Under the pieces are notes generated by a model. That model was given only the letters and a program-made list of their open reading frames with translations, was not told the DNA's origin and made no database searches. Shown piece after piece: positions 1 to 51,400 of a DNA stretch of 64,000 nt; the stretch's first letter is position 1; each line of letters begins with the position of its first letter. The stretch is from an uncultured virus (IMG/VR IMGVR_UViG_3300021255_000105). Its lineage: Duplodnaviria; Heunggongvirae; Uroviricota; Caudoviricetes. Both the position numbers and the translations under genes were made by a program. The stretch lies in IMG/VR virus record IMGVR_UViG_3300021255_000105; one strand, written 5' to 3'.

Positions 1-666
1 CTCTATCGCAACTTCGTTGTAGGATTTCTGCGATATTTGCAGCCGGGCGACTCTTTCAAGATTTTGCAGCCGGGCGACTCTTTCAAGATTTTGCAGCCGG
101 GCGACTCTTTCAAGATTTTGCAGCCGGGCGACTCGCTCCAAATGTTCCAAATGAACCTTTCCGGCGTTTCGGTGCCCGTCCTCATTCTGGGCGTTGATAA
201 TGTCGTAGGCCATGAGCCTTCTCCGCTGGACGTCCGGCTCGGAGTCAATCGGCGTAAGGTCGTAACCGTATTGCGCTATCAGCGAGTAGTCCCGAAAGAC
301 AATGGCATAGTGCAAAGCCTTCTTGTAGTTCTCAACCTCCCCGGCAGCGTAAATGTACGTCCTGCAGTCCGTCCCGAACGAGAAAAGGAGCTTAATCAGT
401 GCATCGTCGGTCTTGAAAAACTCCTCCCGAGAAATCCACCTTTGCTCGTCCCGGTACTCACCGGCAAGGGCATTGGCGAAGATTTGCGGATAGGGCTTCA
501 CGTCATTTGCCACAACGCGCTTGTATTTGCCTGAAAACATGGCCGCATGAGTAATCGCACAGCCACCGGCGAAAAGGTCATAGAGCGTACCGGCTGGCGG
601 AAGGTGCTCCAGCACCTCCTGCGCAATTCTCGATTTTGAGCCTTTGTATGGTAGTCCGTAAAGCAT
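1..666 (-). CDS. DNA adenine methyltransferase (D12/Dam-like class), 3' end beyond window
   Basis: Manual translation from ATG at 666: MLYGLPYKGSKSRIAQEVLEHLPPAGTLYDLFAGGCAITHAA... (PYxGxK and DLFAGG SAM-binding motif I). Missing from the ORF track because it runs off the edge. Confidence 0.85.
   Translation of the reverse strand, partial: MLYGLPYKGSKSRIAQEVLEHLPPAGTLYDLFAGGCAITHAAMFSGKYKRVVANDVKPYPQIFANALAGEYRDEQRWISREEFFKTDDALIKLLFSFGTDCRTYIYAAGEVENYKKALHYAIVFRDYSLIAQYGYDLTPIDSEPDVQRRRLMAYDIINAQNEDGHRNAGKVHLEHLERVARLQNLERVARLQNLERVARLQNLERVARLQISQKSYNEVAIE
34..134. repeat. 27-bp tandem repeat, ~3.7 copies, inside the MTase (encodes NLERVARLQ)
   Basis: ATTTTGCAGCCGGGCGACTCTTTCAAG repeated head to tail. 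Confidence 0.95.
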
Positions 667-1049: not shown

Positions 1050-1104
1050 AACTCAAAGTTTTAAAGTGGTAGCCGGAGGCGGTATCACCCGCGACCGGCT
1101 ATTG

Positions 1105-3271: not shown

Positions 3272-4190
3272 TGGGTTTAAAACTTACTGAACCTTTGACT
3301 TGGATTTCCTTTGCGACCTTTGCAAAGACGGCCGGGAATTGCTCCTTCAGCTTTGCGGTGTCGCATCTTACCTGCGTGCTTGCGGCCCGGCGCTTGAATA
3401 CGCCGCCCTCGGCCTGCAGTTCCGTGAGATTGTGCTCTTCCATGTAGGCGAGCACTTTTGCATCGTTCGCTTTCATAGCCTCCTCAATCTGCTTTATCTG
3501 GGCTTTGAGGATTGCTATCTTTCGGGCGTTGGAAACATAGACAGAAAGCTCACCGGCGGGGATTGCGACCTCAACGCTGGGCGTTTCGTTTTCGTCCATG
3601 TAAATAAGGCCCTTTTTCTCGGCTTCCAAAAGACTTTCTACCTCGGCTTGGGTAACTGGCTCAACCGGGATAAGTTCTTTGATTTTACGGGCCTTTTTGT
3701 CAATCCAAAGACAGTGACAGGATTCGACTTCAATGCCGGGGTTCAGGCGCTCAAAAAGATACTTGTAAATTCCGAGTTGCCATTCCAGCGCCCGGCGGTG
3801 GTATTTCTGTGTGGTCTTGTAGTCCACCAGTCTTACTTTGTTCTTTTTCGTGCCCGCATAAACCCCGTCAATAGCCGAGGCCACGGTTTCAAAGTCCGTC
3901 ACTTGGTATTCGCTGGCGATAAACTTCAGGCCGAGTTTCTTGTAGTCCGAAATCAAGTCGCTTGCGAGTACCGAAATGCCGTTTTCGTAGTCTTGGATTT
4001 CCTTGTGGATTGCTGTGCCCTCCTCGGCGGCTTTTTGTAGTGTCGCTTCGGGAATCCCGGAGTAATCAGCGGAAAGGCCGTGCTTTTTCATCAGGCTTGT
4101 TACGCCCATGAGGAGCGTTTCCCCGTCCAGAAGGTAACTGTGCGAGGTGGGTTCAAAGAAAACCCTATCGGTTGTGTCCGTTAGCTGCAT
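3261..4190 (-). CDS. PD-(D/E)XK exonuclease (Cas4/RecE-like recombination nuclease)
   Basis: GVTS, GTAIH, AIDG..LVDYKT, WQLGIY motifs. Confidence 0.85.
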   Translation of the reverse strand: MQLTDTTDRVFFEPTSHSYLLDGETLLMGVTSLMKKHGLSADYSGIPEATLQKAAEEGTAIHKEIQDYENGISVLASDLISDYKKLGLKFIASEYQVTDFETVASAIDGVYAGTKKNKVRLVDYKTTQKYHRRALEWQLGIYKYLFERLNPGIEVESCHCLWIDKKARKIKELIPVEPVTQAEVESLLEAEKKGLIYMDENETPSVEVAIPAGELSVYVSNARKIAILKAQIKQIEEAMKANDAKVLAYMEEHNLTELQAEGGVFKRRAASTQVRCDTAKLKEQFPAVFAKVAKEIQVKGSVSFKPNED

Positions 4191-4791
4191 CGTTTACTTC
4201 GTTTGAGCGTTTGTTAAATGCTTTGATAAATTCCTTGTCTTTACCAAAGTACTGCTGATAGTACGCCCACGCCTCTTGGAGTTGCTGGGGCGTCGTGAGG
4301 GTTTGCAGGTATTCGATTGCCTGCTCGCGGGATTCATTAAAGGCTTTTTCTTGCTGATACTTTGTCGCGTCATTCTGCCAATACACGTCAGCACCAATTC
4401 CGAGGCTTCTGCAAGCCTGCGAAATCGCATCGGTGTAAGCTTTCTTGGCCGCATCATCGTCAAGATAAAGCCCGTTTTTCTCTTGGGCTTTTACCATAGC
4501 GCCCCCGAATCCCTCAATAGGTTTCGACCACTCGCCATTAACTTTAATGTAGAGGTGGATTTTGAGGTAAACGGCCTTTTCGTTTCCGGCCTCCTCCGTC
4601 CACTTTTCCACAATGTCCGTGTACCACCCGACTCCAGCCGGGCCAAATTCCCGCGTAAGCGTCTGGATTCTCCAAAGGGGGTTAATATCGGTTTTGCCCT
4701 TTAACCGCCCTGCCTGAATATCCTTTTTGGCCTCTTGCGGGACTTCTCGCACCCTGTTATAGAGCGCGAGGTTTGCGTTTTTTTCTGCCAT
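4165..4791 (-). CDS. Rad52/Sak-like ssDNA annealing protein
   Basis: DINPLWRI..FGPAGVGW and KKAYTDAISQACRSLGIGADVYW motifs; adjacent to exonuclease. Confidence 0.8.
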   Translation of the reverse strand: MAEKNANLALYNRVREVPQEAKKDIQAGRLKGKTDINPLWRIQTLTREFGPAGVGWYTDIVEKWTEEAGNEKAVYLKIHLYIKVNGEWSKPIEGFGGAMVKAQEKNGLYLDDDAAKKAYTDAISQACRSLGIGADVYWQNDATKYQQEKAFNESREQAIEYLQTLTTPQQLQEAWAYYQQYFGKDKEFIKAFNKRSNEVNDAANGHNR

Positions 4792-6050: not shown

Positions 6051-6136
6051 AACTCAAAGATTTGTAAAAGCCTCCCTGCATTTCGCAACGCAAGGGAGGC
6101 GGATTGTTTTGTCATAAAGGCCCCGCATTGGGGTTG

Positions 6137-6211
6137 TTGCTGGAGCCGGAGTCGAACCGGCAACCTTTGGAGTCAAAGTCCAACGCTCTAAACCATTTGC
6201 GCTATCCAGCA
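6137..6211 (-). tRNA. tRNA-Gln(TTG)
   Basis: Cloverleaf; anticodon arm TTGGA-CTTTGAC-TCCAA; GGTTCGACTCC T arm. Confidence 0.9.
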
Positions 6212-6284
6212 ATAGTGCCGAGGCTTGTATGCACCCCGGCGGGTGTATTGAGAGAGTTATTAAGAGAGTTATTAGAGGTGTTTG

Positions 6285-6366
6285 TGCCCGGGGAGGGACT
6301 CGAACCCTCACGCCGTATGGCAACGGCTCCTTAAACCGTTGTGTCTGCCAGTTCCACCACCCGGGC
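6285..6366 (-). tRNA. tRNA-Leu(AAG)
   Basis: Leu-type D arm and long variable arm; ACGGT-TTAAGGA-GCCGT gives AAG with G37. Confidence 0.85.
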
Positions 6367-6377
6367 AAAGTGATTTG

Positions 6378-6459
6378 TGGCCCCGGAGGGACTCGAACCC
6401 CCAATCCCGTAGGCGGCAAGGTTTGAGCTTGCCGTGTATGCCAATTCCACCACGGGGCC
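6378..6459 (-). tRNA. tRNA-Leu(CAA)
   Basis: GCAAG-CTCAAAC-CTTGC anticodon arm; long variable arm. Confidence 0.9.
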
Positions 6460-6521
6460 AAGTGCCGGTCTTTCCCGGCTGTCAAAGAAGTTTTTAGTGA
6501 ATAGCGCGTCACTGCGCTTAG

Positions 6522-6603
6522 AGGCGGTGACGGGACTCGAACCCGCGACCCCATGATACATGTGGTAGTTCTCATGCGCTCTACCTTCTGAAGCTACACC
6601 GCC
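6522..6603 (-). ncRNA. tRNA-like RNA with 15-nt anticodon loop
   Basis: Intact acceptor, D and T arms; CATGA/TCATG stem encloses GAACTACCACATGTA. Confidence 0.7.
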
Positions 6604-7104
6604 ACGTCCGAGTCTTTCCTCGGTGCCACCGAAGTTATGAATTGCCGGTTAATGATTATGCCCGCCACGGCTTTCTCCGATTTGGACGGTCGAATACAAA
6701 GTCTTGGGGCTTCCCGTCCAATCATATTCATAACAACGCCCTTTACTCCCCTTCGGTTTGGGGAGCGAGTATCTGACGAGCGCCCCATTCAACCGCCCCG
6801 TGCGAAGCTGGCTGTGCAAGCCCGGGAACGGCCCTCTCCACAAAAGGAGTACATGGAGCCCGGAGTATCGGTCAGGATAAACCGGGCTGGTTTTGGTTAG
6901 AGGAATACCCGTATCAATATTCTTATACGGGACTTGCACCCGCCCGCACGCCTTTTTCGTGCGTAAATAATAGAGAAATAGAAACGGTTATGAGTGCGGG
7001 ACGAAGCGCATAGGCCCCGCTTGTGTAACTAAACCTAATTACCCAGAATAAAATTTATGGCTTCATCAAACTGGAGGCTGCGCTTCCGCCGCATCACTGC
7101 GGGT

Positions 7105-9170: not shown

Positions 9171-10334
9171 ATGACACATTCATTCAATTTTGACAAAGGG
9201 AGCATCAGGCTGGTTGCCTCTCACCACGGCAAACAGTACAAAAAGGCAACCGGCCTTACAACAGAGGCCGCGCTTTGGGACAAAAAGGTGAAATCCCTCC
9301 GTGCAAAGTGCAAAGACCAGCGGATTTGGAAACGACTCCGGGAGATTGACCTTCGGGCCACGGAACGGGAAGATACCGCCCAGACGGAGGAGGACGTGCT
9401 GCGCATCATCGAATACGCGATTACGGGGGAAATGCCAGCGGCCAGAGCAGCCACCAGCGGGGTAAAGAAACTTACCTTTTGGGAGTACTTTGAGGAGTGG
9501 GCCAACCGGCCCGGACCGCAACTGCGGCAAAAGAAACTTTGTTACAGGAACATTGAGCGATTTATGGGCCGTTCGTTCTCATGGGAAGCCGTGGACTCGG
9601 CCTTTCACTTTCGGCTCGTCCAGAAAATGCAAGCGGCCGATTTCGGTATTAACTACCAGTGGAAAACAATCAGCCAACTTAAAACAGTTATGAACGAAGG
9701 GAGGAAACTGAAGTACCACGCCAATTTGGATTATCAGGACTTTAAGACCAAACGGGAGGACCCCGACACAATCTATCTGACAGCCTCCGAGGTGGAGGCC
9801 CTTTGGGGGTTTGTGCCGAAGTATGAGCTGGAAAGGAAGGCCCGCGACTTGTTTTTGCTCGGCGTTTACTCATGCTCCCGTTTTAGCGACTATTCCCGGC
9901 TATCGTCAGATATGATTCGGGACGGGGCAATTCACTTCACCCAGCAAAAGACTGCATCGTCGGTAATCGTCCCCGCCTCCCCTCGCCTTTTGGAAATCCT
10001 CAAACGCAACGGGGGCCGCGCCCCTCATTTGGCGCAGCAGCACCTCAACGAGTGGATTAAACGCATCTGCCGCCAGCTTGGGATTACTTCGCCGGTTGAG
10101 GTCACAACCAGTAACGGCCTCCGACATACAACAGAGGTCAAAGACAAGTGCGACCTTGTGACTTCTCATACGGCCCGGCGGACCGGCATAACGCTGTTAT
10201 ACATGACCGGGATTCCGCTCCAGCAGGTCATGCTGATTTCCGGCCACAAAGACGAGGATTCGATTCGCCACTATTTGAGATTGACGAAGCGGGAAAACGC
10301 GGAAATTTTGAAAGACAACCCCTTTTTCCGTTAG
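9171..10334 (+). CDS. int: phage integrase (tyrosine recombinase)
   Basis: SCSRFSD, SHTARR, SGH, HY catalytic motifs; N-terminal arm and SAM-like regions; 387 aa. Confidence 0.93.
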   Translation: MTHSFNFDKGSIRLVASHHGKQYKKATGLTTEAALWDKKVKSLRAKCKDQRIWKRLREIDLRATEREDTAQTEEDVLRIIEYAITGEMPAARAATSGVKKLTFWEYFEEWANRPGPQLRQKKLCYRNIERFMGRSFSWEAVDSAFHFRLVQKMQAADFGINYQWKTISQLKTVMNEGRKLKYHANLDYQDFKTKREDPDTIYLTASEVEALWGFVPKYELERKARDLFLLGVYSCSRFSDYSRLSSDMIRDGAIHFTQQKTASSVIVPASPRLLEILKRNGGRAPHLAQQHLNEWIKRICRQLGITSPVEVTTSNGLRHTTEVKDKCDLVTSHTARRTGITLLYMTGIPLQQVMLISGHKDEDSIRHYLRLTKRENAEILKDNPFFR

Positions 10335-10620: not shown

Positions 10621-10657
10621 GAAGCCGGGAAGGGTATCACCTCCGCCCGGCTTTGTT

Positions 10658-11023
10658 TCATCGTATTCGTTTTGAAAACGACGCCCACCCGTTGCTTTTA
10701 TCTGGCTTTTTATAGGGTAGGCTAAATTCAGTTGAACTGCGGACTATCCCCGGCTCGTCAATGTCAAAGACGCAGAGCCCGTCGTCGGAGCTTACATACG
10801 CGGAAAGGAAGATTTCGCCCCCAGAGATTCGGTAATACCCAGTCGATTCGCGCCGGTTATCAAAGTGCAGATAGCACTTATCCCCGCCTTCGGGCATTTC
10901 CAGCCAAAGGGTCCCTTCGTAAGTCCATGCCGAGTACATGCCCGGCGAAATCGTTGTCGGTTGTTTCGTGCACGCGGGCATGAGTAGGAGCGCCGCCGCC
11001 AGTAGTAGGATTAACTTTTTCAT
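10658..11023 (-). CDS. lipoprotein with own promoter
   Basis: MKKLILLLAAALLLMPA-C lipobox; TATCTTTG at 11055-11048 upstream. Confidence 0.75.
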   Translation of the reverse strand: MKKLILLLAAALLLMPACTKQPTTISPGMYSAWTYEGTLWLEMPEGGDKCYLHFDNRRESTGYYRISGGEIFLSAYVSSDDGLCVFDIDEPGIVRSSTEFSLPYKKPDKSNGWASFSKRIR

Positions 11024-11077
11024 GTCGCCAGTAAGATTAAAGCCGGACAAAGATAATGATTTTTGCCCGGCCATGCG

Positions 11078-11329
11078 TTACTTTTCCTCGTAAAGTGGCG
11101 TTGTGGGATTCAACGCGCCGGTATCGGTCCTGACGTAGAGGGGCCGCTCGGTGTAGAGCCCTGCGTCCCACATTACGCCCACCCAGATTCGACAGTCGCG
11201 GGAGCTTATGAAGTCGGACGGGTGCTGCCTCCCGTCAATGCTGATACGCCACTTTTTGTTGTTCCCGGTTTCGGGATAGCAGATAATGGCCTTCTGCGGT
11301 ACAGGTGTTGTTGCTTTTGCTTTTGGCAT
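11078..11329 (-). CDS. hypothetical protein
   Basis: 83-aa ORF with start motif. Confidence 0.6.
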   Translation of the reverse strand: MPKAKATTPVPQKAIICYPETGNNKKWRISIDGRQHPSDFISSRDCRIWVGVMWDAGLYTERPLYVRTDTGALNPTTPLYEEK

Positions 11330-11350
11330 AACTCAAAGATTGATTAGAGA

Positions 11351-12181
11351 TTAGGAAAAAAACGCCATAGCGGCGCTGGAAAGCCCTTCGTTTGAGGGTA
11401 TGATATACCGCGCCGTAATAGCGCTGGAAGAGTGCTGGAGTACGCGGGAGATTTCCTCTGTCGCCACCCCGCGCCGGTTAAGGCATGTTGCCATGCTGAT
11501 TCGGGCCGAGTGTGACGTGATAAACTCATATTTAGGCCCCTTCAGTTCTTTGCCGCCTTTGAGGACTATCACCTCGTCGTTAATTCCAGCCTTCTTGCAA
11601 AGTTCGCGGATAGCCTCGTTATAGCACTTTGGCGTAACTTTGTACTCCGGGTGTTCGGCCACCCATGCGATTCTGGCCTCGAGTCCCGGCTTCAGCGGGA
11701 CCACCCCGGCCTTCTTTGTTTTTTGGGCCACGAATCTGATAACGCCCTCCGAAATGTTTTCGGTGGTCAGGTTCATGGCGTCGCCCACGCGGAGGCCCGT
11801 GTAGGCGCAGATAAGAAACACATTCTTAACATACTCTTGCCGGGGCGTGTGCGTCCTCGTTTCGGAAAGCATGTTGAGCTCGGTTTCCGTCAGATAGGTT
11901 TTCATCGGCTTTTGATTCTTGCATGAAAGAATCTTCTGCCAGCCCTTCGGCAGCTCCACGTCCTCGCAGTAGCGGTTAAAGAGCGCTTTTGCGTAGGCCA
12001 TGACCGTCTTTGCGGTTGAGGGTGCAACGGCCTCGGTTAAATGGTCGTGAAACTCATAAAGCGCGGAGCGGGTAATGTCGTTCCACTGGTAAATACCCGC
12101 CGCGTTCAAGTGCTTGCGGAGGGAGGCCCCCGCCGCGCCTTTGTTCTGCATCTTGTCGATTGCTTCTTGTAATGTTCTCAT
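11351..12181 (-). CDS. second tyrosine recombinase (276 aa, no arm-binding domain)
   Basis: YTGLRVGD, QKT, SHSAR, LQHSS, ARY: full R-K-H-R-H-Y set. Confidence 0.9.
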   Translation of the reverse strand: MRTLQEAIDKMQNKGAAGASLRKHLNAAGIYQWNDITRSALYEFHDHLTEAVAPSTAKTVMAYAKALFNRYCEDVELPKGWQKILSCKNQKPMKTYLTETELNMLSETRTHTPRQEYVKNVFLICAYTGLRVGDAMNLTTENISEGVIRFVAQKTKKAGVVPLKPGLEARIAWVAEHPEYKVTPKCYNEAIRELCKKAGINDEVIVLKGGKELKGPKYEFITSHSARISMATCLNRRGVATEEISRVLQHSSSAITARYIIPSNEGLSSAAMAFFS

Positions 12182-12218
12182 AACTCAAAGATTTTTGATT
12201 TGGCGAACGATGAGGTTA

Positions 12219-12389
12219 TCACACCTCCTCGTCCAATGCTTTTTTCAAGTAGATTTTGGCTTTTTCTTTCGCAGACTCTCTATCGTTTGCTGTTAGGTCT
12301 GTGACGGCGACTTCGACTTTTCCGAATCGGAAGTAGACGTTAAAGTATGGCTTCCCGCCTTTGCTTTTTGAATATTTTTCTACGAACAT
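12219..12389 (-). CDS. small hypothetical protein (56 aa), not in ORF track
   Basis: MFVEKYSKSKGGKPYFNVYFRFGKVEV...; fills one cassette slot, stop codon lies in hairpin loop. Confidence 0.6.
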   Translation of the reverse strand: MFVEKYSKSKGGKPYFNVYFRFGKVEVAVTDLTANDRESAKEKAKIYLKKALDEEV

Positions 12390-12441
12390 AACTTATTGTT
12401 TTTGGTTTTTTTGATTTGGAGGGGGAAAGGGCGGTCGGGTC

Positions 12442-12630
12442 CTATCCCCTTTTATACGCCTTACATTTGTCCCGGTTTCGGTGCAGGTCCACGTTGTCGC
12501 CAATCGGTATCGGCCCGATTCGCGGCATGGCTACACACTCATAGCCTCGCACAATGTCAAGCTCGCAGTGTATGCAAGTCCAACAGCAGCGAAAGGAAAA
12601 ATCCTTGTCGGTGATTCGGTGTTTACTCAT
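12442..12630 (-). CDS. small Cys-rich protein
   Basis: CCWTCIHC..C..C; perfect start motif. Confidence 0.65.
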   Translation of the reverse strand: MSKHRITDKDFSFRCCWTCIHCELDIVRGYECVAMPRIGPIPIGDNVDLHRNRDKCKAYKRG

Positions 12631-12666
12631 AACTCAAAGATTTAAGATTAGAGAAGGAGGAGGCGG

Positions 12667-12825
12667 TCAAGCCTCGTCCTTCTTTTTGCGTTTAGGGGTC
12701 TTGAATCCGCAAGCGCCCCAAATTAGCATCGAGTCGCTATTGTAGCGTCCAATCTTGCACCCTTCTTTGGTGCGCCCGTCCCAATGCTCACACTTCCAGC
12801 AGGGCTCTCCTTTTTCCGGTTTCAT
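12667..12825 (-). CDS. small Cys-rich protein (52 aa), not in ORF track
   Basis: MKPEKGEPCWKCEHW...GC...AC; stop codon in hairpin loop. Confidence 0.6.
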   Translation of the reverse strand: MKPEKGEPCWKCEHWDGRTKEGCKIGRYNSDSMLIWGACGFKTPKRKKKDEA

Positions 12826-12884
12826 ATTCGTTAGATTTTAATGGTTTGGCGAGCCGGAGGCCGGTCAGGGCCTCCCGCCCGATA

Positions 12885-13139
12885 CTAATTACCCCCCCCG
12901 TTTTCCTCTTCCGGGTTCTTTTCGAGATACTCTCCAAGCCCGGCCTTCATCTTCTCTGCAAGCGCATTGAGGGAGCCCATGATTTTGTGGAAATCCTCCG
13001 CGAGCTTGCGCTCTTTCGGGTTGCTGGATTCCTCAAACTTCTTTGCGGCCGCTGCGGCTGGGATAGCCCTTGCCTTTTCGCGTAAAACGCGCTCGAAAAT
13101 CCAAAGGGCTTCGTTGGGTGTCAATTCTACTTTAATCAT
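12885..13139 (-). CDS. hypothetical protein
   Basis: 84-aa ORF with start motif. Confidence 0.65.
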   Translation of the reverse strand: MIKVELTPNEALWIFERVLREKARAIPAAAAAKKFEESSNPKERKLAEDFHKIMGSLNALAEKMKAGLGEYLEKNPEEENGGGN

Positions 13140-13209
13140 AACTCAAAAATTTAAAAGTGAAACATAGGTGTTTGGAAGAAGGCGGGAGGTATCAGCCCCC
13201 GCCCCCTTT

Positions 13210-13410
13210 TTACTTTTCGTACTCTTTTAGGATTTCCCGCGTTTTGTCCTCCAGTTCCAAACCGAAGGTAGCGGAGAGATAAAAGAGCTCGCGGACGTGC
13301 CCTTTGGCGCGTTCGGTGTTGAGCAGACCGGCGGCAACCATATTGACCGTTCCGTCAAGGTGCTCCTCGGCATACATTTTCAGATTTTCCTTTGTGACTT
13401 CTTTTGCCAT
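13210..13410 (-). CDS. hypothetical protein
   Basis: 66-aa ORF in array. Confidence 0.6.
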   Translation of the reverse strand: MAKEVTKENLKMYAEEHLDGTVNMVAAGLLNTERAKGHVRELFYLSATFGLELEDKTREILKEYEK

Positions 13411-13416
13411 AACATT

Positions 13417-13614
13417 CTAATTTTTAATAATTCTAAATTTGTCTATTTCCGGGACAACAGCAAGCGAGCCCCAAGTGCCGTGGAGCTGGCCGATTCCGTC
13501 AATCATCTGGACCACGCCCTCGCGCCCGTTGTAAGCCCGAGCCTGCTCGTCCTTTCCGTTTCCGTCGTCCATTCGGACAATGCGAATCTTGTCGCCGACT
13601 TTTACTTTACTCAT
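13417..13614 (-). CDS. DUF4314-like protein
   Basis: VGDKIRIVRMDD..GREGVVQMIDGIGQLHGTWGSLAV..D.F pattern. Confidence 0.7.
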   Translation of the reverse strand: MSKVKVGDKIRIVRMDDGNGKDEQARAYNGREGVVQMIDGIGQLHGTWGSLAVVPEIDKFRIIKN

Positions 13615-13810
13615 GGCTTTCCTCCTCAATTTTTGCAATCTTTGTAAGCTCGCGCAGAATCAAATTACAACGGTTGATAGTCAGCTCAATGCTCCGCGTT
13701 GCTTCCTGTACCTGAATCTTGTTGCTGGCGGCCCGGAGGTCGCTGATAGTCTGGATTACGCACTCGCCGATAAGCTCAAAATCGTTTTTGGAGAAAGTAA
13801 GATTATACAT
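13607..13810 (-). CDS. hypothetical protein
   Basis: 67-aa ORF with start motif. Confidence 0.6.
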   Translation of the reverse strand: MYNLTFSKNDFELIGECVIQTISDLRAASNKIQVQEATRSIELTINRCNLILRELTKIAKIEEESHE

Positions 13811-13869
13811 AACTCATTGATTTAATTGGTTTTTGAGCGCGGGAAAGGTATCACCCCGTCCCGCCCTTT

Positions 13870-14115
13870 TCAGTACGGAAATGTGCAACCGGCCCGCACC
13901 CATTTTTCCACGTCCTCGGCGGCTTCGAATAAAGTCCGTACCATACTTGAAAGAACGTTATCACCCAGCTTAAAAGTAACGAGGAGCGCCCCTTCGGGAT
14001 TGTGGCTCACCACGACGGACTCGCCGTTTCGCGGATTGACCCATGCGGCCCTAATGTTGTGTTGTTCGCAGGCAAAGTAGATTTGCCGTGCAAGGTTGTC
14101 TTTTGTCTTACTCAT
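13870..14115 (-). CDS. hypothetical protein
   Basis: 81-aa ORF with start motif. Confidence 0.65.
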   Translation of the reverse strand: MSKTKDNLARQIYFACEQHNIRAAWVNPRNGESVVVSHNPEGALLVTFKLGDNVLSSMVRTLFEAAEDVEKWVRAGCTFPY

Positions 14116-14170
14116 AACTCAAAGTGTTTAAGATTGGAGAAGGCGGGCCGCAATCAAGCCCCCGCCTTCT

Positions 14171-14647
14171 TTAAGCGTTCGGATTCATCTGCCGGAGGAT
14201 TTTTTTCATGGCCGCTTCACACTGGCTCGCCACTTTCAGGCACAGGGCCGATTGGTCTTTGTCGCGGTCGTTTTCCAGCGCCCGGGCGGTCGCTTTCAGG
14301 CTTGCAGATTGGTCTGCAAGGGTGGCGGCAATTACCGTCATGTCCTCTTTTGTCAGCTCAACTTTCCGCTCTCGCGTGTCCGGCGTTCCTTCCCAGTCGG
14401 CAACCCATTCGATTCTTAAAAGTTCGTCCGGCTCGCGCATGTCGGGGTCCCCCCGCCAGATTTCCTCGGCGGCGGCTTTGATTGTCCCGCGTTCGCAGTC
14501 GATAATTACTGAATCCGTCCCGGCGGGGATATGCGCCGCCAGATTGCCGCAGAAAACAAGCTCATTCACAAGGTCGTGCAGCAGGCAGTAAGCCATTTGA
14601 TACTCCCGGCTCCCGGGGTCCTCAATTTTGATAGATAGCTTATACAT
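14171..14647 (-). CDS. hypothetical protein
   Basis: 158-aa ORF with start motif. Confidence 0.65.
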   Translation of the reverse strand: MYKLSIKIEDPGSREYQMAYCLLHDLVNELVFCGNLAAHIPAGTDSVIIDCERGTIKAAAEEIWRGDPDMREPDELLRIEWVADWEGTPDTRERKVELTKEDMTVIAATLADQSASLKATARALENDRDKDQSALCLKVASQCEAAMKKILRQMNPNA

Positions 14648-14704
14648 AACTCTTTAAGATTTAATTGGTTTGGAGAAGGTGGGCGGTATCACCCGCCCGC
14701 CCTC

Positions 14705-15100
14705 TTAATCATCAACGTAAAAAAGAATATCCTCCGGGACGAAATCGAGGTCGTTGTAGTCAATCCCCTCGTCCCAGCAGTACTCTTGCATCTGGTCGCT
14801 TATCTGGTCGGCGAGTCTTGCGTCGGCCTGCAAAAGCGAGCATCGGTTCCGGTCGATAGCGCCCAGCGCCCGGCTCGTTCTTTCGTCCCAGCCTTCGATA
14901 TTGTCCTTGCATCGGAGCCATACGGCCATCCGGGGTTCGTCCTTTTTGAGTTCGTCGAACATTTCCGGGGTCAGCTTTGAAAGGTCCAGCTTCACGCTCT
15001 CGCCGGTGCGGTAGCTCTTAATTTCGAGCACCGGCCCGTCAAATGAGAAAACCTTGCTTCCGTTAATGATTTTGATTGCGTTTTCGTAGGTCTGTTTCAT
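14705..15100 (-). CDS. hypothetical acidic protein
   Basis: 131-aa ORF, D/E-rich C-terminus, perfect start motif. Confidence 0.65.
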   Translation of the reverse strand: MKQTYENAIKIINGSKVFSFDGPVLEIKSYRTGESVKLDLSKLTPEMFDELKKDEPRMAVWLRCKDNIEGWDERTSRALGAIDRNRCSLLQADARLADQISDQMQEYCWDEGIDYNDLDFVPEDILFYVDD

Positions 15101-15160
15101 AACTCAAAGATTTAAGATTTTAGCAAGCGCGGGAGGTATCACCCGCCCGCGCCCGTGGCG

Positions 15161-15553
15161 CTATCCGATGCTATAAAAGTGCTCTATGTGGTCGCAAAGT
15201 GTTATGTATTTTTCATCTTTGCTCCCGTCGCCGTATCCGGCCCTTTTCCAGTCGAAAAACTCGCGTGAAAGGTTATCGGCGGCGATGCACTCGCCATAGC
15301 TCATGCTTTCTTGCTCGCCGCCAAGAATAAACGTGGCGCAGGCTTTTGCAACGAGCATAGCCCTATCGAGCTCGGTGTTGCTTATTTTGCCGTCCGGGGC
15401 GTTGGTCGTAAACCGCACCGATTCCCCGAGGCCCCGCGTGATTGTGATTGCGCGGTCGAGGCCGCTGTTCAGGCAAACGTCGATACTGCGCTCGTTGTTT
15501 TTCTCCGCATCAAAGCAGAAGAGGATAGCAGTTACCATGATTTTCTTGCTCAT
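15161..15553 (-). CDS. hypothetical protein
   Basis: 130-aa ORF, perfect start motif. Confidence 0.65.
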   Translation of the reverse strand: MSKKIMVTAILFCFDAEKNNERSIDVCLNSGLDRAITITRGLGESVRFTTNAPDGKISNTELDRAMLVAKACATFILGGEQESMSYGECIAADNLSREFFDWKRAGYGDGSKDEKYITLCDHIEHFYSIG

Positions 15554-15599
15554 AACTCAAAGATTTTTAAAGATTTAACTCGGCGAAGGTGGGCGCGTA

Positions 15600-16034
15600 T
15601 TAGGCCCCCGCCTCCATTTCATTGAGCTCGTCTATTGCATCGTCGATTATATCCAGCGGCTTGTAATAGTGGCTCAAAGCGTTTTCCCGCGTTGCATCTG
15701 CAAAGGACTCCGGCCCGGGTATATAGCGCACGATTTCCGCGCGTGTCAGTTCCAGGGCCGCAACGGCCTCGGCGGGTTCGATATATTCCCCTTCCCGGCC
15801 CTTTTGAATCAGCCCGGAAAGGTAACTTCTATATCCCCCCGTCCCGGCCTTTTCAAGCGCCCTTAAAGCGCGAAACAAGATAGAACGGACTTGCACCCCG
15901 TCCCGGTCTTTTTTCTCGTTTTTAGCAAGTTTTAGGGCCGTTTCCCGGGCTTCAGTATTCCGGGCGCTGCGCATAATCAGCGCGAACGGCAGCGCAAGTA
16001 GGCATGTAATAGGGATTAACCAAAAAGGACTCAT
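15600..16034 (-). CDS. membrane-anchored hypothetical protein
   Basis: MSPFWLIPITCLLALPFALIM N-terminal TM; stop TAA in hairpin loop. Confidence 0.6.
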   Translation of the reverse strand: MSPFWLIPITCLLALPFALIMRSARNTEARETALKLAKNEKKDRDGVQVRSILFRALRALEKAGTGGYRSYLSGLIQKGREGEYIEPAEAVAALELTRAEIVRYIPGPESFADATRENALSHYYKPLDIIDDAIDELNEMEAGA

Positions 16035-16113
16035 ATTTTTTAGATTTAATTTGGAGGCCGGGTGGAGCATCGCCCCCGCCCGGCTTGATTATGAAAAACA
16101 ATGCAAATCGCTC

Positions 16114-16185
16114 TTATTCGGAGCGTTTTTCGGCCATGAGATTGACAAAAATTGCAATCAGAATCATAGGTACAAAAATAGTCAT
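16114..16185 (-). CDS. 23-aa hydrophobic micropeptide
   Basis: MTIFVPMILIAIFVNLMAEKRSE; perfect start motif and upstream hairpin. Confidence 0.55.
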   Translation of the reverse strand: MTIFVPMILIAIFVNLMAEKRSE

Positions 16186-16272
16186 AACTCAAAGATTTAA
16201 AGATTTTTAGAGAGCGGAAAGGGTATCACCCCTCCCCGTCCTTTTGTTTTACCCCCTCCCCCTTTTCTTTTT

Positions 16273-16755
16273 TTAGTCGGCCCAGTGGAACATGTAAGCG
16301 CAGGCCTCGTCTTTTTTCGCGGCCTCCTCCTCGGTGTCATCTTCGCTTTTGGCGTACTTGCTATCGAACATATCCAGCGCTTTGTAGTACAAATCGGCGT
16401 AAAGCTCGGACAGCCCGTGCTCGTTATTTGCGTGCCAGAACCACGACAAATGATTCAGGCTCATAATAAGCTCGGTGAAGTACTTGTAATCGGACAGCCA
16501 GCTGCGCGAGGCGCGGTTGTAGGTGTCTTTTATTGCGTTGTCCCCGAAGGGCTCGGCCAGCGCGAAATCCGATACAAACGTGGTAAAGCGCTTATATCCG
16601 TTATTTTCGCTCATAACCCGCTCAAAGATACGCTCCATAGCGGCCCCGTAGATGAACGGATTGCTCCGGGCCTGCGTGAGAAGTTTCTTGACTCCCGGGC
16701 GCATGGCGCGGGCATAAGGGTTGCTCGTTTTGGTGGCGGTTGCAGTTGTACTCAT
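16273..16755 (-). CDS. conserved phage/MGE hypothetical protein
   Basis: TTF..DF..AE.FG..AIKDTY.RA...W..DYKY.TEL.M.LNH pattern; perfect start motif. Confidence 0.7.
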   Translation of the reverse strand: MSTTATATKTSNPYARAMRPGVKKLLTQARSNPFIYGAAMERIFERVMSENNGYKRFTTFVSDFALAEPFGDNAIKDTYNRASRSWLSDYKYFTELIMSLNHLSWFWHANNEHGLSELYADLYYKALDMFDSKYAKSEDDTEEEAAKKDEACAYMFHWAD

Positions 16756-16831
16756 AACTCAAAGATTTTTAATAGTTAGACATTTGGCAGGCGTGGTCCC
16801 GGTCAGGGGGCCTCGCCCGTTTCAATCCTTG

Positions 16832-17098
16832 TTAGTCCTGAATGGCGACATATCGCCACTCGTAGCGGTACTGCCCCCGGGCACCCGGGGTTTTGGTGTA
16901 CGTGTTTTTGCAGAGGAGCGCGTCGCAGTCGGGGTTTATCTTCATTAGCTTATACCCGGCCCGGACGAGCATTTTAACCGCATCTTGAAAATTACTCGGT
17001 ATCGAGTGGAAGGTGGGCTTGTATGAGCAAATGACATAGCGCCCGCCCTTTTTACGGTCTGCGCCCTCGGTGAGGAAGGATTTGTTTTTCAGATTCAT
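16832..17098 (-). CDS. hypothetical protein
   Basis: 88-aa ORF with start motif. Confidence 0.6.
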   Translation of the reverse strand: MNLKNKSFLTEGADRKKGGRYVICSYKPTFHSIPSNFQDAVKMLVRAGYKLMKINPDCDALLCKNTYTKTPGARGQYRYEWRYVAIQD

Positions 17099-17155
17099 AA
17101 CTCGAAAGATTTAAAAGTTTTTGAACCCCGGGCGCGGTATCAGCGCCCCCGGGAT

Positions 17156-17974
17156 TTAGTCAGATAGTTTGCTCATTATAGCGGCGGTATTAAGCCCGCG
17201 CAGCTCATAAAACGATACTATCTTTTTTAGGTGCAGCCCGGCGTTTTTTGCGGCGGTATCGACGAGCCCGGCGTCGCTTATGGGTGAACCATGACCGATT
17301 GAAAAATAGAGGTTTTTCAAGCCCGGGGCCGTTTCAACGAACCGCAAAAAATGCCTTCTTAACATTGACGGGTTTACAAGTGGATAGGCCGTTTTTTTAA
17401 TGTCAAGATACTGCGCCGAGTCTTTGATTCTTACAAACATATTGCAAGTATCATAATGCCCGCCCCGGGCGCTGCATTTAGAACCGAAATAGACGTAAAG
17501 ATTAACTCTATATCCGTTTTTCTCGAGTCCCATGAGCGCCCCCATGAGGGCGGCGGCGGTATCTTTCAGCTCGTCGGCGCTTATATCATACGAGGCGCTG
17601 CCGTTATAACATACATTCAATACTTTACTATCTTTATATGTTACTTTTTCGGTGCGTATCATGGATTTAGGAAGGCCCATGAGGGCGGCCGGGACGCTCG
17701 CCGCGCCCCCGCAAACGGAGGCATATCGGCGTGTCCTGCGCCCCTCTCCGAGGGTTTTCACGCGGGCCGCAGTTGCCGTTTTCAGGGCGGCGGCGCTTTT
17801 TTCGTCCCCGTCCCGGAGCAGCACGTTTGCGGCTTCGTATGATTCCGTCCCGGTGAATTTTTCGGAGCCCGTAAAAGCGCCGCAATCGCGGCCCTTAAAA
17901 ACTTGATTTTCCGGGGCCGTATCAAGATACGCCCGGAGCCCGTCTAAATTGCTGAAGGTTTTTGTAATATCCAT
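17156..17974 (-). CDS. vWA-like partner of the AAA ATPase
   Basis: 272 aa; SVPAALMGLPKSM, LEKNGYRVNLY, NPSMLRR; adjacent to MoxR-type ATPase. Confidence 0.55.
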   Translation of the reverse strand: MDITKTFSNLDGLRAYLDTAPENQVFKGRDCGAFTGSEKFTGTESYEAANVLLRDGDEKSAAALKTATAARVKTLGEGRRTRRYASVCGGAASVPAALMGLPKSMIRTEKVTYKDSKVLNVCYNGSASYDISADELKDTAAALMGALMGLEKNGYRVNLYVYFGSKCSARGGHYDTCNMFVRIKDSAQYLDIKKTAYPLVNPSMLRRHFLRFVETAPGLKNLYFSIGHGSPISDAGLVDTAAKNAGLHLKKIVSFYELRGLNTAAIMSKLSD

Positions 17975-18032
17975 AACTCAAAAATTTAAGATTAGAACCC
18001 CGCCCCCGGTCCCCCGGGCGGCAGGATTTATG

Positions 18033-19160
18033 CTACATTGCAAGGGCAAAAACATTGTTTTTGTGAGTGAGCCCGGCGCGAAGTATGTTTATTTCGTCCC
18101 GGTCATAACCGCCCGTAATTGCAAGGGATACGGCCTCGGCGGTATCAATACCCGCCTTCATAAACTTTGCGAGGCGGGATATGTTACGATACCCGAGGAC
18201 GATATGCACCCCGGCCGCGGCGGCGCTTTTTCTCATGTCATAAATGAACTCGAGAATATCGGACCGCCCCCCGGCGAGGTTTTTCTCAATCCCGGCGCAA
18301 TAGTCGAACTGCATCGGGGTGAACCTATTAAGGGAGGAGGCGTCGATTACGCTGCGCCCGGTGTACATTTCATCAGCACCCCGGCCGCAGGTATTTCCGG
18401 CCGCGATACAATGAAAATCTTTGTGCATTTTTACGCGGCCCCCGGGGAAGGTGAAATATCCGTTAGCGAGGGCGGCGTTCAATGTTACCAACGTATCCGG
18501 GCAGGAGGCGTCGAGTTCATCAAGCATGAAAACGCCGCCCCGGGTGAAGGCCCGGTAAAATTCCGTTTCATGATAGCGCCCGGAGGCGTCAATAAAGCCC
18601 GTCAATTTAAATTCATCGGTTACGGAATTTTGATAATAAAATTCTAAACCGAGGGCGCGGGCTATTTGCTCACAAACGTAATTTTTCCCGGAGCCCGCGG
18701 GGCCGTAAAGATAGACGGACTCACCGAGCTGCATGAGCTGCAGCAGGCGGGCAAATTTATCATGTTTTACCTCGTTATCTTTGCGGGGTGCGGGTACGGG
18801 TGCGGGGGCCGGGACGGGTTCCGGCATGGGTGCGGGAGCGGGCTCGGGTGCAGGCGTATCTTTGCGGGCGCGGCGGGTTATGTTTTCGCGTATCTTTGCA
18901 TAAGCCTCGGACCCCTCAAAACATACATTTATAAGTTTTTCAGGACCGGACTCGGCGAGCATTGTAGCGGCGGCAGTTTCAGTCAGAACCCCGGAAAAAT
19001 CCCCGAGGCGATACATGAACTTCCAGCCGTACATGTTACCGAGTTTTGTGTTATTCCATGCAAGGGTATGAGAACCCAAAAACATAGAACCGGACTCGCA
19101 AATGATAGCGCTTTTTTTGCCGTTTACATAGCATTTAAGAATGTTTGCATTGTGTTTCAT
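18033..19160 (-). CDS. MoxR/CbbQ-like AAA+ ATPase
   Basis: Walker A GPAGSGKN, Walker B FMLDELD, AAGNT, DASSLNRF; Pro-Ala linker after N-domain. Confidence 0.88.
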   Translation of the reverse strand: MKHNANILKCYVNGKKSAIICESGSMFLGSHTLAWNNTKLGNMYGWKFMYRLGDFSGVLTETAAATMLAESGPEKLINVCFEGSEAYAKIRENITRRARKDTPAPEPAPAPMPEPVPAPAPVPAPRKDNEVKHDKFARLLQLMQLGESVYLYGPAGSGKNYVCEQIARALGLEFYYQNSVTDEFKLTGFIDASGRYHETEFYRAFTRGGVFMLDELDASCPDTLVTLNAALANGYFTFPGGRVKMHKDFHCIAAGNTCGRGADEMYTGRSVIDASSLNRFTPMQFDYCAGIEKNLAGGRSDILEFIYDMRKSAAAAGVHIVLGYRNISRLAKFMKAGIDTAEAVSLAITGGYDRDEINILRAGLTHKNNVFALAM

Positions 19161-19591
19161 AACTCATAAAGATTTAATTGTTTAACATGGTACTTCGGCG
19201 GGGTATCAATCCCGGCAAAATAAGCCCGGGCGCCGTATTGCACCCGGGGCGGCAAAAACAATTAAATCTAACTTTTTGAGTTATCGGAAAACGTTTCAAA
19301 GTTTATCCCTGCAGGCAATTGCTCCGTTTTTCTTTCGGGATTGTGCGTATAAAAACGCCCTGCATGATTTTCCCTTCCTCATCGGAATGTCATTTACTTT
19401 GTTTTCCTGTATTGTCAAAGAACTTCCCCGGCGGCGCGGGCTCTTGCATCATGGACTTTTACGGGGTTTTCAAGTCCGAGCCCTTCGGCATTGTCTTGCA
19501 TTGATTAGTGTTATAGGATTAAACCGATATTGTTATATATCCCGTCACCTTCGACGGCGTTTTAACTAATCAATGTTTCAAAGAACTGATG

Positions 19592-19599
19592 CAAAGTTA
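19592..19599 (-). promoter_or_regulatory. -7 element of promoter driving the early array
   Basis: TAACTTTG on the minus strand in an AT-rich intergenic region. Confidence 0.6.
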
Positions 19600-49439: not shown

Positions 49440-50792
49440 ATGGCAGCAACAGAACAACCAGTAACCGAATTGACGGTTTACACCGACCCGGCCCTCGTCG
49501 CCGGAAAAGCAGTTTTGCTTCACGACAAGACCACAGGCGACGCTATTCGCTTTGACGCGGAAAAGCTCGTTGCGGTCGCAAAGGATTTGTCCATGTTCAC
49601 CGTGGACGGAACCTCTCTCATTCTCCGCGAAACCGCCAACTGCTATGTTGTGCGCACCCCCGGAGCCTATAAGTTTCCCCTTGTTTATGGAAACGGAATC
49701 AAACGCGGCGTTGCCAATGACGCGGCCTATACCCGTCAAGGAACAACCTATACCGCCGACTTCGTGAACCACCTCGGAAACGCAATCACCTCGCCCTACA
49801 TTGAGAAAAACGCCAACTGCCAGCCCGCCTCCGCAGGCCTCCTTTGGCAGACGCATCAAAGCATGATTACGAGCGTTTCGCTCGTGGAGGGTGGCGATTG
49901 TAAGTACATTCAGTTTACCGTGGGCCAAGTCCCGGCCACAAACGGAAATGCCGTTTTATTCGTTAAGGACTCTGGCGGTAATATCATGTGGAGCTGGCAC
50001 ATTTGGCTGACCTCTGATTCGCTCGGCCCGGAAGTGTTCAAGAATAACACCGCCGTTGAGTACCAGCTTATGAGCGAAAACCTCGGCGCTATGTGGAACG
50101 AAGCCCGCACCCGGTCTTTCAATCCTCATTACCAGTGGGGGCGTAAAGACCCTATGGCTCCGCCCGCATCGTACTCCTCCACCTCCCAACACACGCTCTA
50201 CGACATTAACAACAATGTCTATACCGGCTTTGGTGTTTTGGGTGCGGACTCTGACGAACTTTCGACAAAGACCGTCGATAACGCGATTAAGAACCCTAAC
50301 CTGTTCTTTACCCGTTACGACCAGACGAGCCACAACTGGAACAACCTTACGTGGTTTAACAACTTCTGGAACGCTGCGGAAACCGCGTCATCCTCGCTTG
50401 CAGACAATCAGGCCAGCGCCGTAAAGACCATTTACGACCCGTGCCCGGTTGGATTCATGCTTCCTTCTGGACGAGCCTTTACCGGATTTACAACGACCGG
50501 CGGAAACACCTCCGACTCGACACAGTTTAATGTTGTTGGCTCGTGGATTAACGGCTGGAATTTCAAGAAATCCGATTCGGACACTGTGGGTAATATGTTC
50601 CCGGCGTCCGGCTGTCGTGCCAATGGTACTGGAGCGTTCGCCAGTATGGCGAGTGGCGGCCACTATTGGTCTTTTGCTCCGAACTCACAGACCAACGCCC
50701 GTATCCTGTACTTCGACAGTGGCTACGTGGGCCCGCTGGACAACAGCAACCGTAGCAGCGGCTTTTCGGTGCGCCCTTGCCGAGAATTATAA
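49440..50792 (+). CDS. DGR target 1: putative adhesin/receptor-binding protein with C-terminal variable CLec-like region
   Basis: TANCY, WSWHIW, YQWGRKDP, DPCPVG motifs; VR at 3' end. Confidence 0.88.
   Translation: MAATEQPVTELTVYTDPALVAGKAVLLHDKTTGDAIRFDAEKLVAVAKDLSMFTVDGTSLILRETANCYVVRTPGAYKFPLVYGNGIKRGVANDAAYTRQGTTYTADFVNHLGNAITSPYIEKNANCQPASAGLLWQTHQSMITSVSLVEGGDCKYIQFTVGQVPATNGNAVLFVKDSGGNIMWSWHIWLTSDSLGPEVFKNNTAVEYQLMSENLGAMWNEARTRSFNPHYQWGRKDPMAPPASYSSTSQHTLYDINNNVYTGFGVLGADSDELSTKTVDNAIKNPNLFFTRYDQTSHNWNNLTWFNNFWNAAETASSSLADNQASAVKTIYDPCPVGFMLPSGRAFTGFTTTGGNTSDSTQFNVVGSWINGWNFKKSDSDTVGNMFPASGCRANGTGAFASMASGGHYWSFAPNSQTNARILYFDSGYVGPLDNSNRSSGFSVRPCREL
50603..50784 (+). repeat. DGR variable repeat VR1
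   Basis: 182 bp co-linear with TR; by hand 17 mismatches at TR adenines plus one C/T. Confidence 0.95.
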
Positions 50793-50867
50793 TAATAAAC
50801 TTTGCGGGAAGCCCCGCCTTTGGACGGCGGGGCTGTGGCCCGCGCGAAAGGAAAAAGAAACTGCGCT

Positions 50868-51050
50868 ATGAAAGTATTAAAAATTGACGGCTTGAAAACC
50901 AGCGGAACTACGGTAATTGCCGCGGAGAAGGTTTTTATCGGAGCGGCAGAATCAAACGAGCTTATTGATAAGATTCGCGAGTTTGATTTAGCAAACTCCT
51001 CGCCGCTTATGTGTTACGACTTTTTGAGGACTCTTAAAGAAGAATTATAA
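50868..51050 (+). CDS. small DGR-linked accessory protein
   Basis: 60 aa; IREFDLANSSPLMCYDFLRTLK resembles the MutS C-terminal helix-loop-helix. Confidence 0.55.
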   Translation: MKVLKIDGLKTSGTTVIAAEKVFIGAAESNELIDKIREFDLANSSPLMCYDFLRTLKEEL

Positions 51051-51400
51051 TGGATTTCCATGCCTTGAACGTTTATAATACCGCGCGACGGCTTTACCGC
51101 CAGCTCGACCAAAGCACGCAGAAAGTAGCCCGCGAGGTGCGAATCACCTCAATAGCCGAGGCGAAGCGCTGGATAGAGTCAATCATGGAGAATATCGCGT
51201 TTGCAAACGAGGCTTTTGAATCAAAGGAAAACCGATTACAGCTCATTCAGCAAGCTATTATTATCTTGCAACGGCTTGAAATCCGAGTAAGAATCTTCCT
51301 TGATTTAGGCTTTATCAAAAAGGCCGGATTCGACGCGATAATCGACCTTGAAGCGAGCGCCCTACGACAACTTCAGGGCTGGGAGAAAGCACAAAAATAA
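51050..51400 (+). CDS. avd: DGR accessory variability determinant (four-helix bundle)
   Basis: 116-aa helical protein ending RQLQGW, directly before TR and RT. Confidence 0.8.
   Translation: MDFHALNVYNTARRLYRQLDQSTQKVAREVRITSIAEAKRWIESIMENIAFANEAFESKENRLQLIQQAIIILQRLEIRVRIFLDLGFIKKAGFDAIIDLEASALRQLQGWEKAQK

Follow-up and report, generated by a model that had tools for sequence, protein, structure and literature searches.

A hairpin of fixed geometry at the gene junctions of an uncultured gut phage: a possible RNA signal and joint for gene exchange

The uncultured virus IMGVR_UViG_3300021255_000105 carries an array of 20 open reading frames (ORFs) on the minus strand, running from 19160 down to 10658 and flanked by a divergent gene at 20071 and a convergent integrase, in which most neighbouring genes are separated by a small hairpin of fixed size, called the element below. 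The window analysed here consists of bases 1-64000 of the 65,558-bp virus record, which has direct terminal repeats. The element is real and is widespread in this phage group. It was present at 15 of the 19 internal junctions, with one further copy before the first gene and one, in the form of a terminator, after the last (Table 1); the co-directional, hairpin-split array described by a first-pass annotation of this DNA was thus confirmed. The four junctions devoid of the element were those of two translationally coupled pairs (13607/13614 and 13410/13417) and the two following the array recombinase, where other hairpins are found. We propose, giving it about an even chance, that the hairpin is a cut-and-protect signal in the messenger RNA (mRNA) and that gene-plus-hairpin units are exchanged by short homology via the start spacer that they share.

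Scans with the recombinase and other markers gave about 90 related phage loci (L-numbers; X-numbers designate metagenome runs). Twenty-five arrays, the window included, were analysed. They were picked for several visible junctions, some are truncated at contig ends, and L038/L019 and L027/L031 are closely related pairs. Their 319 genes, with a median length of 84 amino acids (aa), fell into 155 families, 99 of which were found at a single locus. Among the 280 hairpins detected, the 247 distinct ones whose loop measured 6-7 nt and whose stem had 9 or more of the 13 pairs were kept, and the other 33 were dropped. The element spans 55-70 bp and consists, in this order, of a symmetric 13-pair stem with 1x1 mismatches (not the bulged stem reported initially), a 6-7-nt loop, the bases C-N-A-A, an A/T spacer and a start motif. 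Left free to extend, the stem stopped at 12-13 pairs in 218/247 hairpins, the first flanking position being paired in 7%. Pair 2 was mostly G-C or G-U, with a G at the second stem position in 199/247, and pair 3 was a wobble in 56%. The loop was constrained more strongly than the stem; 209 of the 247 loops were 6 nt long, with the form N-YGRN-M and two classes, GTGAYA and YTGACC. The conserved TGATAC loop of the first-pass annotation corresponds to the first class and overlooks the second. The bases after the stem were C (94%), then C, A or U, A at +3 (93%) and A (80%), with CCA in 144/247.

Watson-Crick pairs averaged 9.5 out of 13, compared with 5.2 when arms were shuffled among elements. 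Covariation between the arms reached 0.91, against 0.27 when shuffled and at most 0.31 when slid, in 60 of 119 diverse elements whose preselection for at least 11 pairs and 6-nt loops inflates the 0.91. A covariance model of 60 related hairpins, a check that had been suggested with the first description, recovered 15 sites in the array and, elsewhere in the genome, one at 1064-1104 (16 in total). A fixed-geometry scan of the array strand gave 17 sites, including a few non-junction hits, whereas 40 dinucleotide shuffles averaged 1.9 sites and never exceeded 5. The heptamer GGTATCA was present 17 times in the window (4.1 by chance); nine copies lay within 10621-19250, eight of them in hairpin loops, as counted before, and one at 18141 inside the ATPase gene, and another lay at 1081. 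The excess of G-U over A-C within the stems (503 versus 94 in the 247 hairpins) indicates the coding strand, and RNA folding was better on this strand in 207 of 265 hairpins. The arm covariation and the coding-strand bias agree with the earlier suggestion of a structure recognised in single-stranded form, RNA or DNA. Distant arrays, with recombinases 30-37% identical, keep the hairpin, the C-N-A foot and the spacer. A hairpin of element geometry followed by CCA was also seen at 6857-6888 on the minus strand, with no start codon adjoining; it lies about 250 nt upstream of a cluster of four tRNA genes (6136-6603, minus strand). In Rfam, positions 1-22000 of the window matched tRNAs only at E<=5, the element having no curated family. 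Single hits in only 4 of 61 Bacteroidales genomes ruled out a general host signal.

Usual expression signals were considered for the junctions. Coding-strand terminators were rejected given the lack of a U-tract after the stem in 242/247 hairpins (a T-rich tail was seen in 5/247). Opposite-strand terminators were rejected as well, since A-runs stood ahead of only 95/247 hairpins and the G-U pairs turn into mismatches. A sigma70 promoter in each cassette was discarded (10 sites versus 8.7 by chance), as was a Bacteroidota promoter in each, the spacer consensus being without TAnnTTTG. The spacer measured 16-41 nt, with a median of 25 nt between the stem base and the ATG, and an A was found at -12/-13 from the start in 85-89%. 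In Flavobacterium, an A at these positions raises translation, and it matches the Bacteroidota start signal (PMC6847099; this and the other publications are cited from the parts accessible to us). In hosts of this phylum, translation starts are A-rich and tuned by structure, and do not rely on Shine-Dalgarno pairing (PMC6847099). It is therefore possible, if unlikely, that the hairpin serves translation initiation, fencing off an unstructured landing pad of 20-36 nt or docking the ribosome or a phage protein, with no cutting. Its distance from the ATG, and its presence before the first gene and every uncoupled gene but not between coupled ones, would suit such a role. However, the distance to the ATG varies whereas the stem length and C-N-A-A do not, the copy at 6857-6888 serves no adjoining start, and the hairpin is inherited with the gene upstream of it (see below). 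In four phages (L068, L023, L088 and L026), the start motif had an ending of its own, common to most cassettes of that phage, which suggests that spacers may be homogenised within a lineage.

The borders of the units were visible in the reading frames. At 190 scored junctions, the upstream ORF ended before the stem in 155 cases, in the 5' arm or the loop in 31, in the 3' arm in none and beyond the hairpin in four, two of which were miscalled; 49 further junctions, with a gene between, were unscored. As a control, 111 of 161 ORFs would end past the loop if the true stop was ignored. The loop supplied the stop codon of three window genes (15600, 12667 and 12219), as first annotated. Arm identity was 0.68/0.62 between hairpins following the same gene (68 pairs), and 0.45/0.42 between those preceding the same gene (112 pairs), for a background of 0.46/0.39. 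Spacer identity was 0.54 with the same upstream gene and 0.63 with the same downstream gene (background 0.45). Thus, hairpins are inherited with the upstream gene, and spacers lean to the downstream gene. This inheritance and the reading-frame boundary argue for an exchange unit made of spacer, ORF and hairpin, with its border at the 3' foot. A double-stranded site of the loxP/dif type with a crossover in the loop was rejected, as both arms follow the same gene and covary.

Comparison of relatives showed gains, losses and breakpoints at the element, as the first-pass annotation would have it, but the gene order was largely kept. The crossovers were scattered over the stem base, the start motif, the ATG and the sequence 5' of the hairpin. 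Those at the base comprised the 56-aa gene before the recombinase (L031 versus L027, -1 to +7), the window compared with L047 and L001 at the recombinase (position 0), and, less firmly, runs X6 and X20, each lacking one cassette (single contigs, depth 2-3). Further down were the crossovers of the window versus L047 at 15100 and of L071 versus L001, and a two-gene loss at an ATG in L047. Run X4 had 572 extra bases with 15097-15120 repeated. L047 and L001 differed by a crossover 5' of the hairpin, and one case was 10 nt out of register. None of the 78 gene pairs was inverted relative to L047 or to L001, and one of 78 was relative to L071; overall, 66 of 970 pairs were inverted (904 kept), some of the inversions being family miscalls. 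Turnover showed no polarity, the unshared genes by array third being 33/96, 31/90 and 33/85. The search for excised circles gave none among the joints listed in the contigs of eight runs, assembly being prone to drop rare circles. Two backward joints (13818->12414 and 16769->14682) were considered as circles and rejected; they had 19-21 other letters between and were read as relatives with another gene order.

The tyrosine recombinase of the array matched PF00589 and gave no arm-domain hit, in agreement with the initial description of a short enzyme present in addition to the normal integrase. Its catalytic residues are R131, K154, H224, R227, H250 and Y259, and all six are retained in an alignment of 55 of its 146 homologues. 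The predicted fold (pLDDT 90.6) comprises the core-binding and catalytic domains of tyrosine recombinases. The best structure matches by E-value were XerA, lambda Int and IntI4, all remote, with a TM score of 0.52 to IntI4 versus 0.67 to the lambda Int core. The IntI-specific insertion is missing: the Arg-to-His spacing is 93, and the profile alignment is gapless to XerA/XerD and only partial to IntI4. In the relatives, the recurrent layout was a series of variable small genes, the recombinase, zero to three genes and a usually convergent integrase. Contigs of runs X4, X7 and X20 share the start motif and the first 11 recombinase codons (window 12149-12191) and then diverge, so another cassette gene may share the N-terminus of the recombinase. 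An HNH endonuclease gene lies 3' of the recombinase in L018 (10001-11607), L020, L033 and L036; in L018, a phage without an array, the pair looks as if it had moved together. In LoVEphage (L099:16342-18419), a ParA-like gene directly precedes the orthologous recombinase at the end of a tightly packed operon, a hint that the recombinase may help maintain or resolve circular phage DNA.

Could this enzyme act on the hairpin? The recombinase subfamily, not an integron integrase, would then be dedicated to a 32-nt hairpin site that doubles as the mRNA signal of the cassette, and gene-plus-hairpin cassettes would be excised and inserted at the stem base, forming a phage-borne system akin to integrons or rAID. 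We regard this as rather improbable. The anatomy is integron-like, with a site after the ORF, a stop that may lie within it and a boundary at the 3' foot. The gains and losses in L027/L031, X6 and X20 (one low-depth contig for each run) are precise at the base. The subfamily is a well-supported long-branch clade (97/100) of 32 loci, 30 of which carry the element; a scan with the element pattern only gave 50 stretches, eight of them from six array genomes, and all four arrays that reached the distal end had the recombinase. A Bacteroidales recombinase with gene arrays and intergenic motifs is also known, rAID (PMC12247911). On the other hand, there is no duplex past the stem for a second monomer, pair 1 covaries so that the crossover is not inside the stem, and at least four events cross elsewhere. 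The order is kept for all 78 pairs in comparison with either of the two closest relatives, and for 904 of 970 overall, and turnover has no polarity. The enzyme is catalytically intact in the absence of the element in L018 (a 39.5-kb record) and in LoVEphage-type phages, and shared descent of one operon explains the co-occurrence. The missing IntI insertion also speaks against the idea, although in Bacteroidales it does not by itself rule out cassette systems, as rAID illustrates (PMC12247911). Integron-style shuffling thus appears disfavoured by the kept order, the lack of polarity and the intact recombinase of element-less phages: of the attC-like shuffling in the first-pass annotation, the content differences with breakpoints at junctions stood and the part given to the recombinase fared less well, so that its interpretation as a whole is partly supported.

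In the model that we favour, a cut-and-protect hairpin combined with short-homology exchange, one long early transcript would start from the promoter box at 19592, and each hairpin would be read by an enzyme measuring one helical turn, most likely the host tRNA-maturation machinery. It is the strict stem length, with the loop and foot constraints, that points to a reader spanning one helical turn. Twelve pairs, one base and CCA, with G first, make up the shape of a tRNA acceptor/T arm. A tRNA-maturation enzyme is proposed because the element displays 12 pairs, one base and C-(C)-A with G at position 1 (12-13 pairs in 218/247; C 94%, C 63%, A 93%; G in 199/247). Several loops read like a T-loop minus one base. 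In one distant array, a true T-loop-like heptamer is present in a junction hairpin (L089:5177-5222), where ARAGORN predicted no tRNA. Cleavage on the 3' side would give single-gene mRNAs ending in the hairpin, and it fits the reading-frame boundary, the co-inheritance of hairpin and upstream gene, and the fact that the last copy has the form of a terminator. Exchange of the units could involve a Rad52/Sak-like protein or, alternatively, a template switch at the base of the stem. Swapping by a Sak-like protein, which the first-pass annotation had also put forward, is plausible as the phage encodes a Rad52/Sak-like protein (a lead), an exonuclease, SSB and NinB/Orf. Products of the base type and of the ATG type would both be expected if annealing spanned the entire spacer. 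As for the recombinase, it would act on another substrate, as a conserved gene at the end of the operon.

Several observations weigh against this model. The loop, mostly of 6 nt (209/247), departs from the 7-nt T-loop consensus, and position 75 is a C in only 63%. In front of the first gene, the hairpin would have no ORF to protect. The rarity of the element in host-like genomes (4/61) would fit a phage-encoded reader better than a host enzyme. With DNA folding parameters, the strand bias is weak (155/247), so the form recognised may be single-stranded DNA. Distant arrays have other loops and often shorter stems. Several crossovers lie 0-7 nt from the stem base with little homology, and the recombinase clade with the element at 30 of its 32 loci is a further point to account for.

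A related possibility, highly improbable in our view, is that RNase P cuts the 5' foot of the hairpin and leaves the downstream mRNA with a protective 5' stem. Twelve pairs, N and CCA with a G at +1 resemble the hairpin substrates of RNase P, whose cleavage depends on a 3' RCCA (PMC12710915), and the GGU pairing with RCCA is kept in two Bacteroidales RNase P RNAs. However, a 5' cut would cost 31 of 186 ORFs their stop, including the most widespread cassette gene, and the base after the stem is U in 81/247.

The box at 19592 matches the Bacteroidota -7 consensus, TAnnTTTG, and a TAnnTTTG box was present at a similar distance in L001, L012, L014, L015 and L022. The leader also contains a terminator-like hairpin (19225-19248) and a segment complementary to the cassette start motif. 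This anti-start-motif is kept in about ten relatives and could pair with most other cassette starts. A role of the leader as a master antisense was rejected: the motif was confined to one subgroup plus L027/L031, and was not found in L017, L020, L033, L063, L113 or distant arrays. The leader hairpin, the copies of the element in the other early operon and a loop under stronger constraint than the stem would suit a transcription pause or antitermination site, where a bound factor keeps the polymerase running through the 9-kb operon. We consider this very unlikely, as no candidate factor was found among the array proteins, and the exact stem length, the C-N-A-A foot and the reading-frame boundary are left unexplained.

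The window belongs to a complete 65.6-kb temperate phage of the ruminant gut. Its genes include those for the terminase, portal, major head protein and tape measure, for an integrase and repressor-like proteins, and for a reverse transcriptase accompanied by Avd. Among named phages, the Bacteroides phage LoVEphage is the closest (32.5% identity for the terminase, 37% for the recombinase). Such relatives, together with the TAnnTTTG box 439 nt upstream of the array, point to a Bacteroidales host; a search for the host with the recombinase profile in 400 sampled genomes returned no further prophage. The runs holding the array were gut, sheep, bovine and goat gut metagenomes, with at least half of the array words in 6 of 22 listed rows (three studies, one of them possibly that from which the record itself came), and no RNA run holding it was among the runs listed. 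Elsewhere, a diversity-generating retroelement occupies 50623-53052, with an Avd-like gene (51050-51400) and a reverse transcriptase (51859-53052) on either side of a likely template region, and the terminal repeat region contains a 27-nt tandem repeat (window 40-185 and genome end).

Most array proteins had no family. PADLOC gave no match for 19 of the 20 proteins given, and no function was found for the small array genes in PADLOC, NCBIfam or the atlas. Proteins related to that of 15600-16034 measure 126-158 aa, occur at varying array positions and usually end in the hairpin loop, with no family match. The last gene (10658-11023), which has its own promoter-like box, is probably not part of the operon.

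Table 1. Features of the array, its leader and related positions in the window
Feature	Position	Strand	Basis
Host-type promoter box TAACTTTG, 439 nt upstream of first gene	19592..19599	-	Bacteroidota -7 match
Leader anti-start-motif, complementary to cassette start motif	19256..19286	-	Predicted pairing with start region of first gene
Element before first gene; 11/13 pairs, loop TTGATA, then CCA	19191..19222	-	
AAA+ ATPase (AAA_5, phrog_249), first gene	18033..19160	-	Family matches
Element, GGGA-loop variant	17997..18027	-	
DUF7192 protein, ATPase partner by position	17156..17974	-	Family match
Element, 7-nt loop	17124..17156	-	
88-aa ORF; unrelated ORF in its place in L001	16832..17098	-	Locus comparison
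Element	16788..16819	-	
160-aa ORF, no family	16273..16755	-	Family searches
Element	16211..16242	-	
23-aa ORF, kept in relatives	16114..16185	-	Locus comparison
Element	16055..16086	-	
144-aa protein, hydrophobic N-terminus, stop in hairpin loop	15600..16034	-	Found in 18/25 arrays
Element, TAA stop in loop	15584..15616	-	
130-aa ORF; missing from L001 and L071	15161..15553	-	Locus comparison
Element; following spacer takes extra cassettes in L047 and run X4	15124..15155	-	
131-aa ORF	14705..15100	-	ORF call
Element, RNA z-score -4.4	14674..14705	-	
158-aa ORF	14171..14647	-	ORF call
Element	14138..14170	-	
81-aa ORF	13870..14115	-	ORF call
Element	13836..13867	-	
Three coupled ORFs (67, 65 [DUF4314] and 66 aa), no elements between	13210..13810	-	Family match and junction survey
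Element	13176..13208	-	
84-aa ORF	12885..13139	-	ORF call
Element	12850..12881	-	
52-aa Cys-rich ORF, stop in loop	12667..12825	-	ORF call
Element	12652..12683	-	
62-aa Cys-rich ORF	12442..12630	-	ORF call
Element, 10/13 pairs	12420..12451	-	
56-aa ORF, stop in loop; unit gain/loss between L027 and L031	12219..12389	-	Locus comparison
Element before recombinase	12204..12235	-	
276-aa tyrosine recombinase, no arm domain, catalytic residues intact, fixed distal position	11351..12181	-	Domain search, alignment, model
83-aa ORF after recombinase	11078..11329	-	ORF call
121-aa protein, lipoprotein-like signal; own TAnnTTTG box at 11048-11055	10658..11023	-	Sequence inspection
Same hairpin geometry, then T-run: terminator form, after last gene	10622..10653	-	
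Arm-type integrase, convergent with array; 26% identity to array recombinase	9171..10334	+	Family match, alignment
Rad52/Sak-like annealing protein (lead), beside exonuclease, SSB, NinB/Orf	4165..4791	-	Atlas lead
Full element, spacer and start motif, outside array, in recombination/replication operon	1070..1101	-	

The element is a new structured motif of unusually strict geometry. A standard joint of this kind lets the phage gain and lose accessory genes singly without breaking their expression, and the junctions precisely delimit the members of a large set of small early genes, among which host-takeover and counter-defence proteins are likely to be found. If host tRNA-maturation enzymes do cut the hairpins, this would be an unreported mode of phage-operon expression that also offers a way into RNA processing in Bacteroidota; should the recombinase act on them, they would form a new cassette system.

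A literature search, mostly of open-access main texts, found no published description of the element, and nothing bearing on it was seen in the accessible parts of PMC9723704, PMC7366714, PMC10861873, 10.1101/2022.04.22.489220 and PMC12629997. LoVEphage (MW660583; PMC8525569) has an operon ending in a short recombinase (37% identity), convergent with the integrase and repressors, and a similar start motif, but most of its genes are tightly coupled, its recombinase is preceded by a ParA-like gene, and it lacks the element. In this context, the accessible part of its description mentions only two integrases (PMC8525569). The early region of phage T7 has RNase III sites, and typical RNase III sites are longer than these hairpins. 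Like those sites and the tRNA-like substrates of RNase P/Z (PMC12710915), the element is a structured intergenic site that could give single-gene mRNAs; here the processing is predicted only, and the hairpins also mark gene-exchange units. In the SAS/ESAS of Cluster K mycobacteriophages (PMC3203893), a repeated start-associated motif, often after an imperfect inverted repeat, precedes unrelated small genes. The arms of the ESAS conform to a sequence consensus and the spacer is variable, whereas here the arms vary and covary, and the loop and length are fixed.

The integron attC (PMC8618304) is likewise a sequence-variable hairpin after an ORF that travels with it, with a boundary at the 3' foot and an adjacent tyrosine recombinase. 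In the present array there is no attI/intI at the head, no polarity and no fixed extrahelical base, and the recombinase, without the IntI insertion, sits at the distal end as a cassette. Instead of a paired R box and one crossover, the element has a symmetric stem, unpaired flanks and scattered crossovers. An attC needs a stem long enough for two monomers, and that of the element is too short. The rAID systems (PMC12247911) share a tyrosine recombinase, co-oriented short genes, conserved intergenic motifs and a Bacteroidales setting, but their recombinase is upstream of genes of less than 41% GC in bacterial genomes; here it is downstream, in a phage operon, in an array of 51.7% GC with no immunity families seen.

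The first-pass annotation also pointed to the PeSL of T4-type phages (PMC2839356, PMC4122927). There, a repeated intergenic element made of a stem-loop, an A/T-rich stretch and a start signal separates the small orphan genes of a hyperplastic region. Insertions, deletions and replacements coincide with it, with crossovers at several points, and no dedicated recombinase is shown in the accessible text. The PeSL, of about 100 bp, has a sigma70-type promoter and a working terminator. The present element has 55-70 bp, neither promoter type and no U-tract, and is characterised by its fixed 13-pair stem, conserved loop and C-N-A-A foot. The likeness therefore held for the turnover, and not for the promoter and terminator: judging from the comparison of arrays, the element appears to behave like a PeSL in its evolution.

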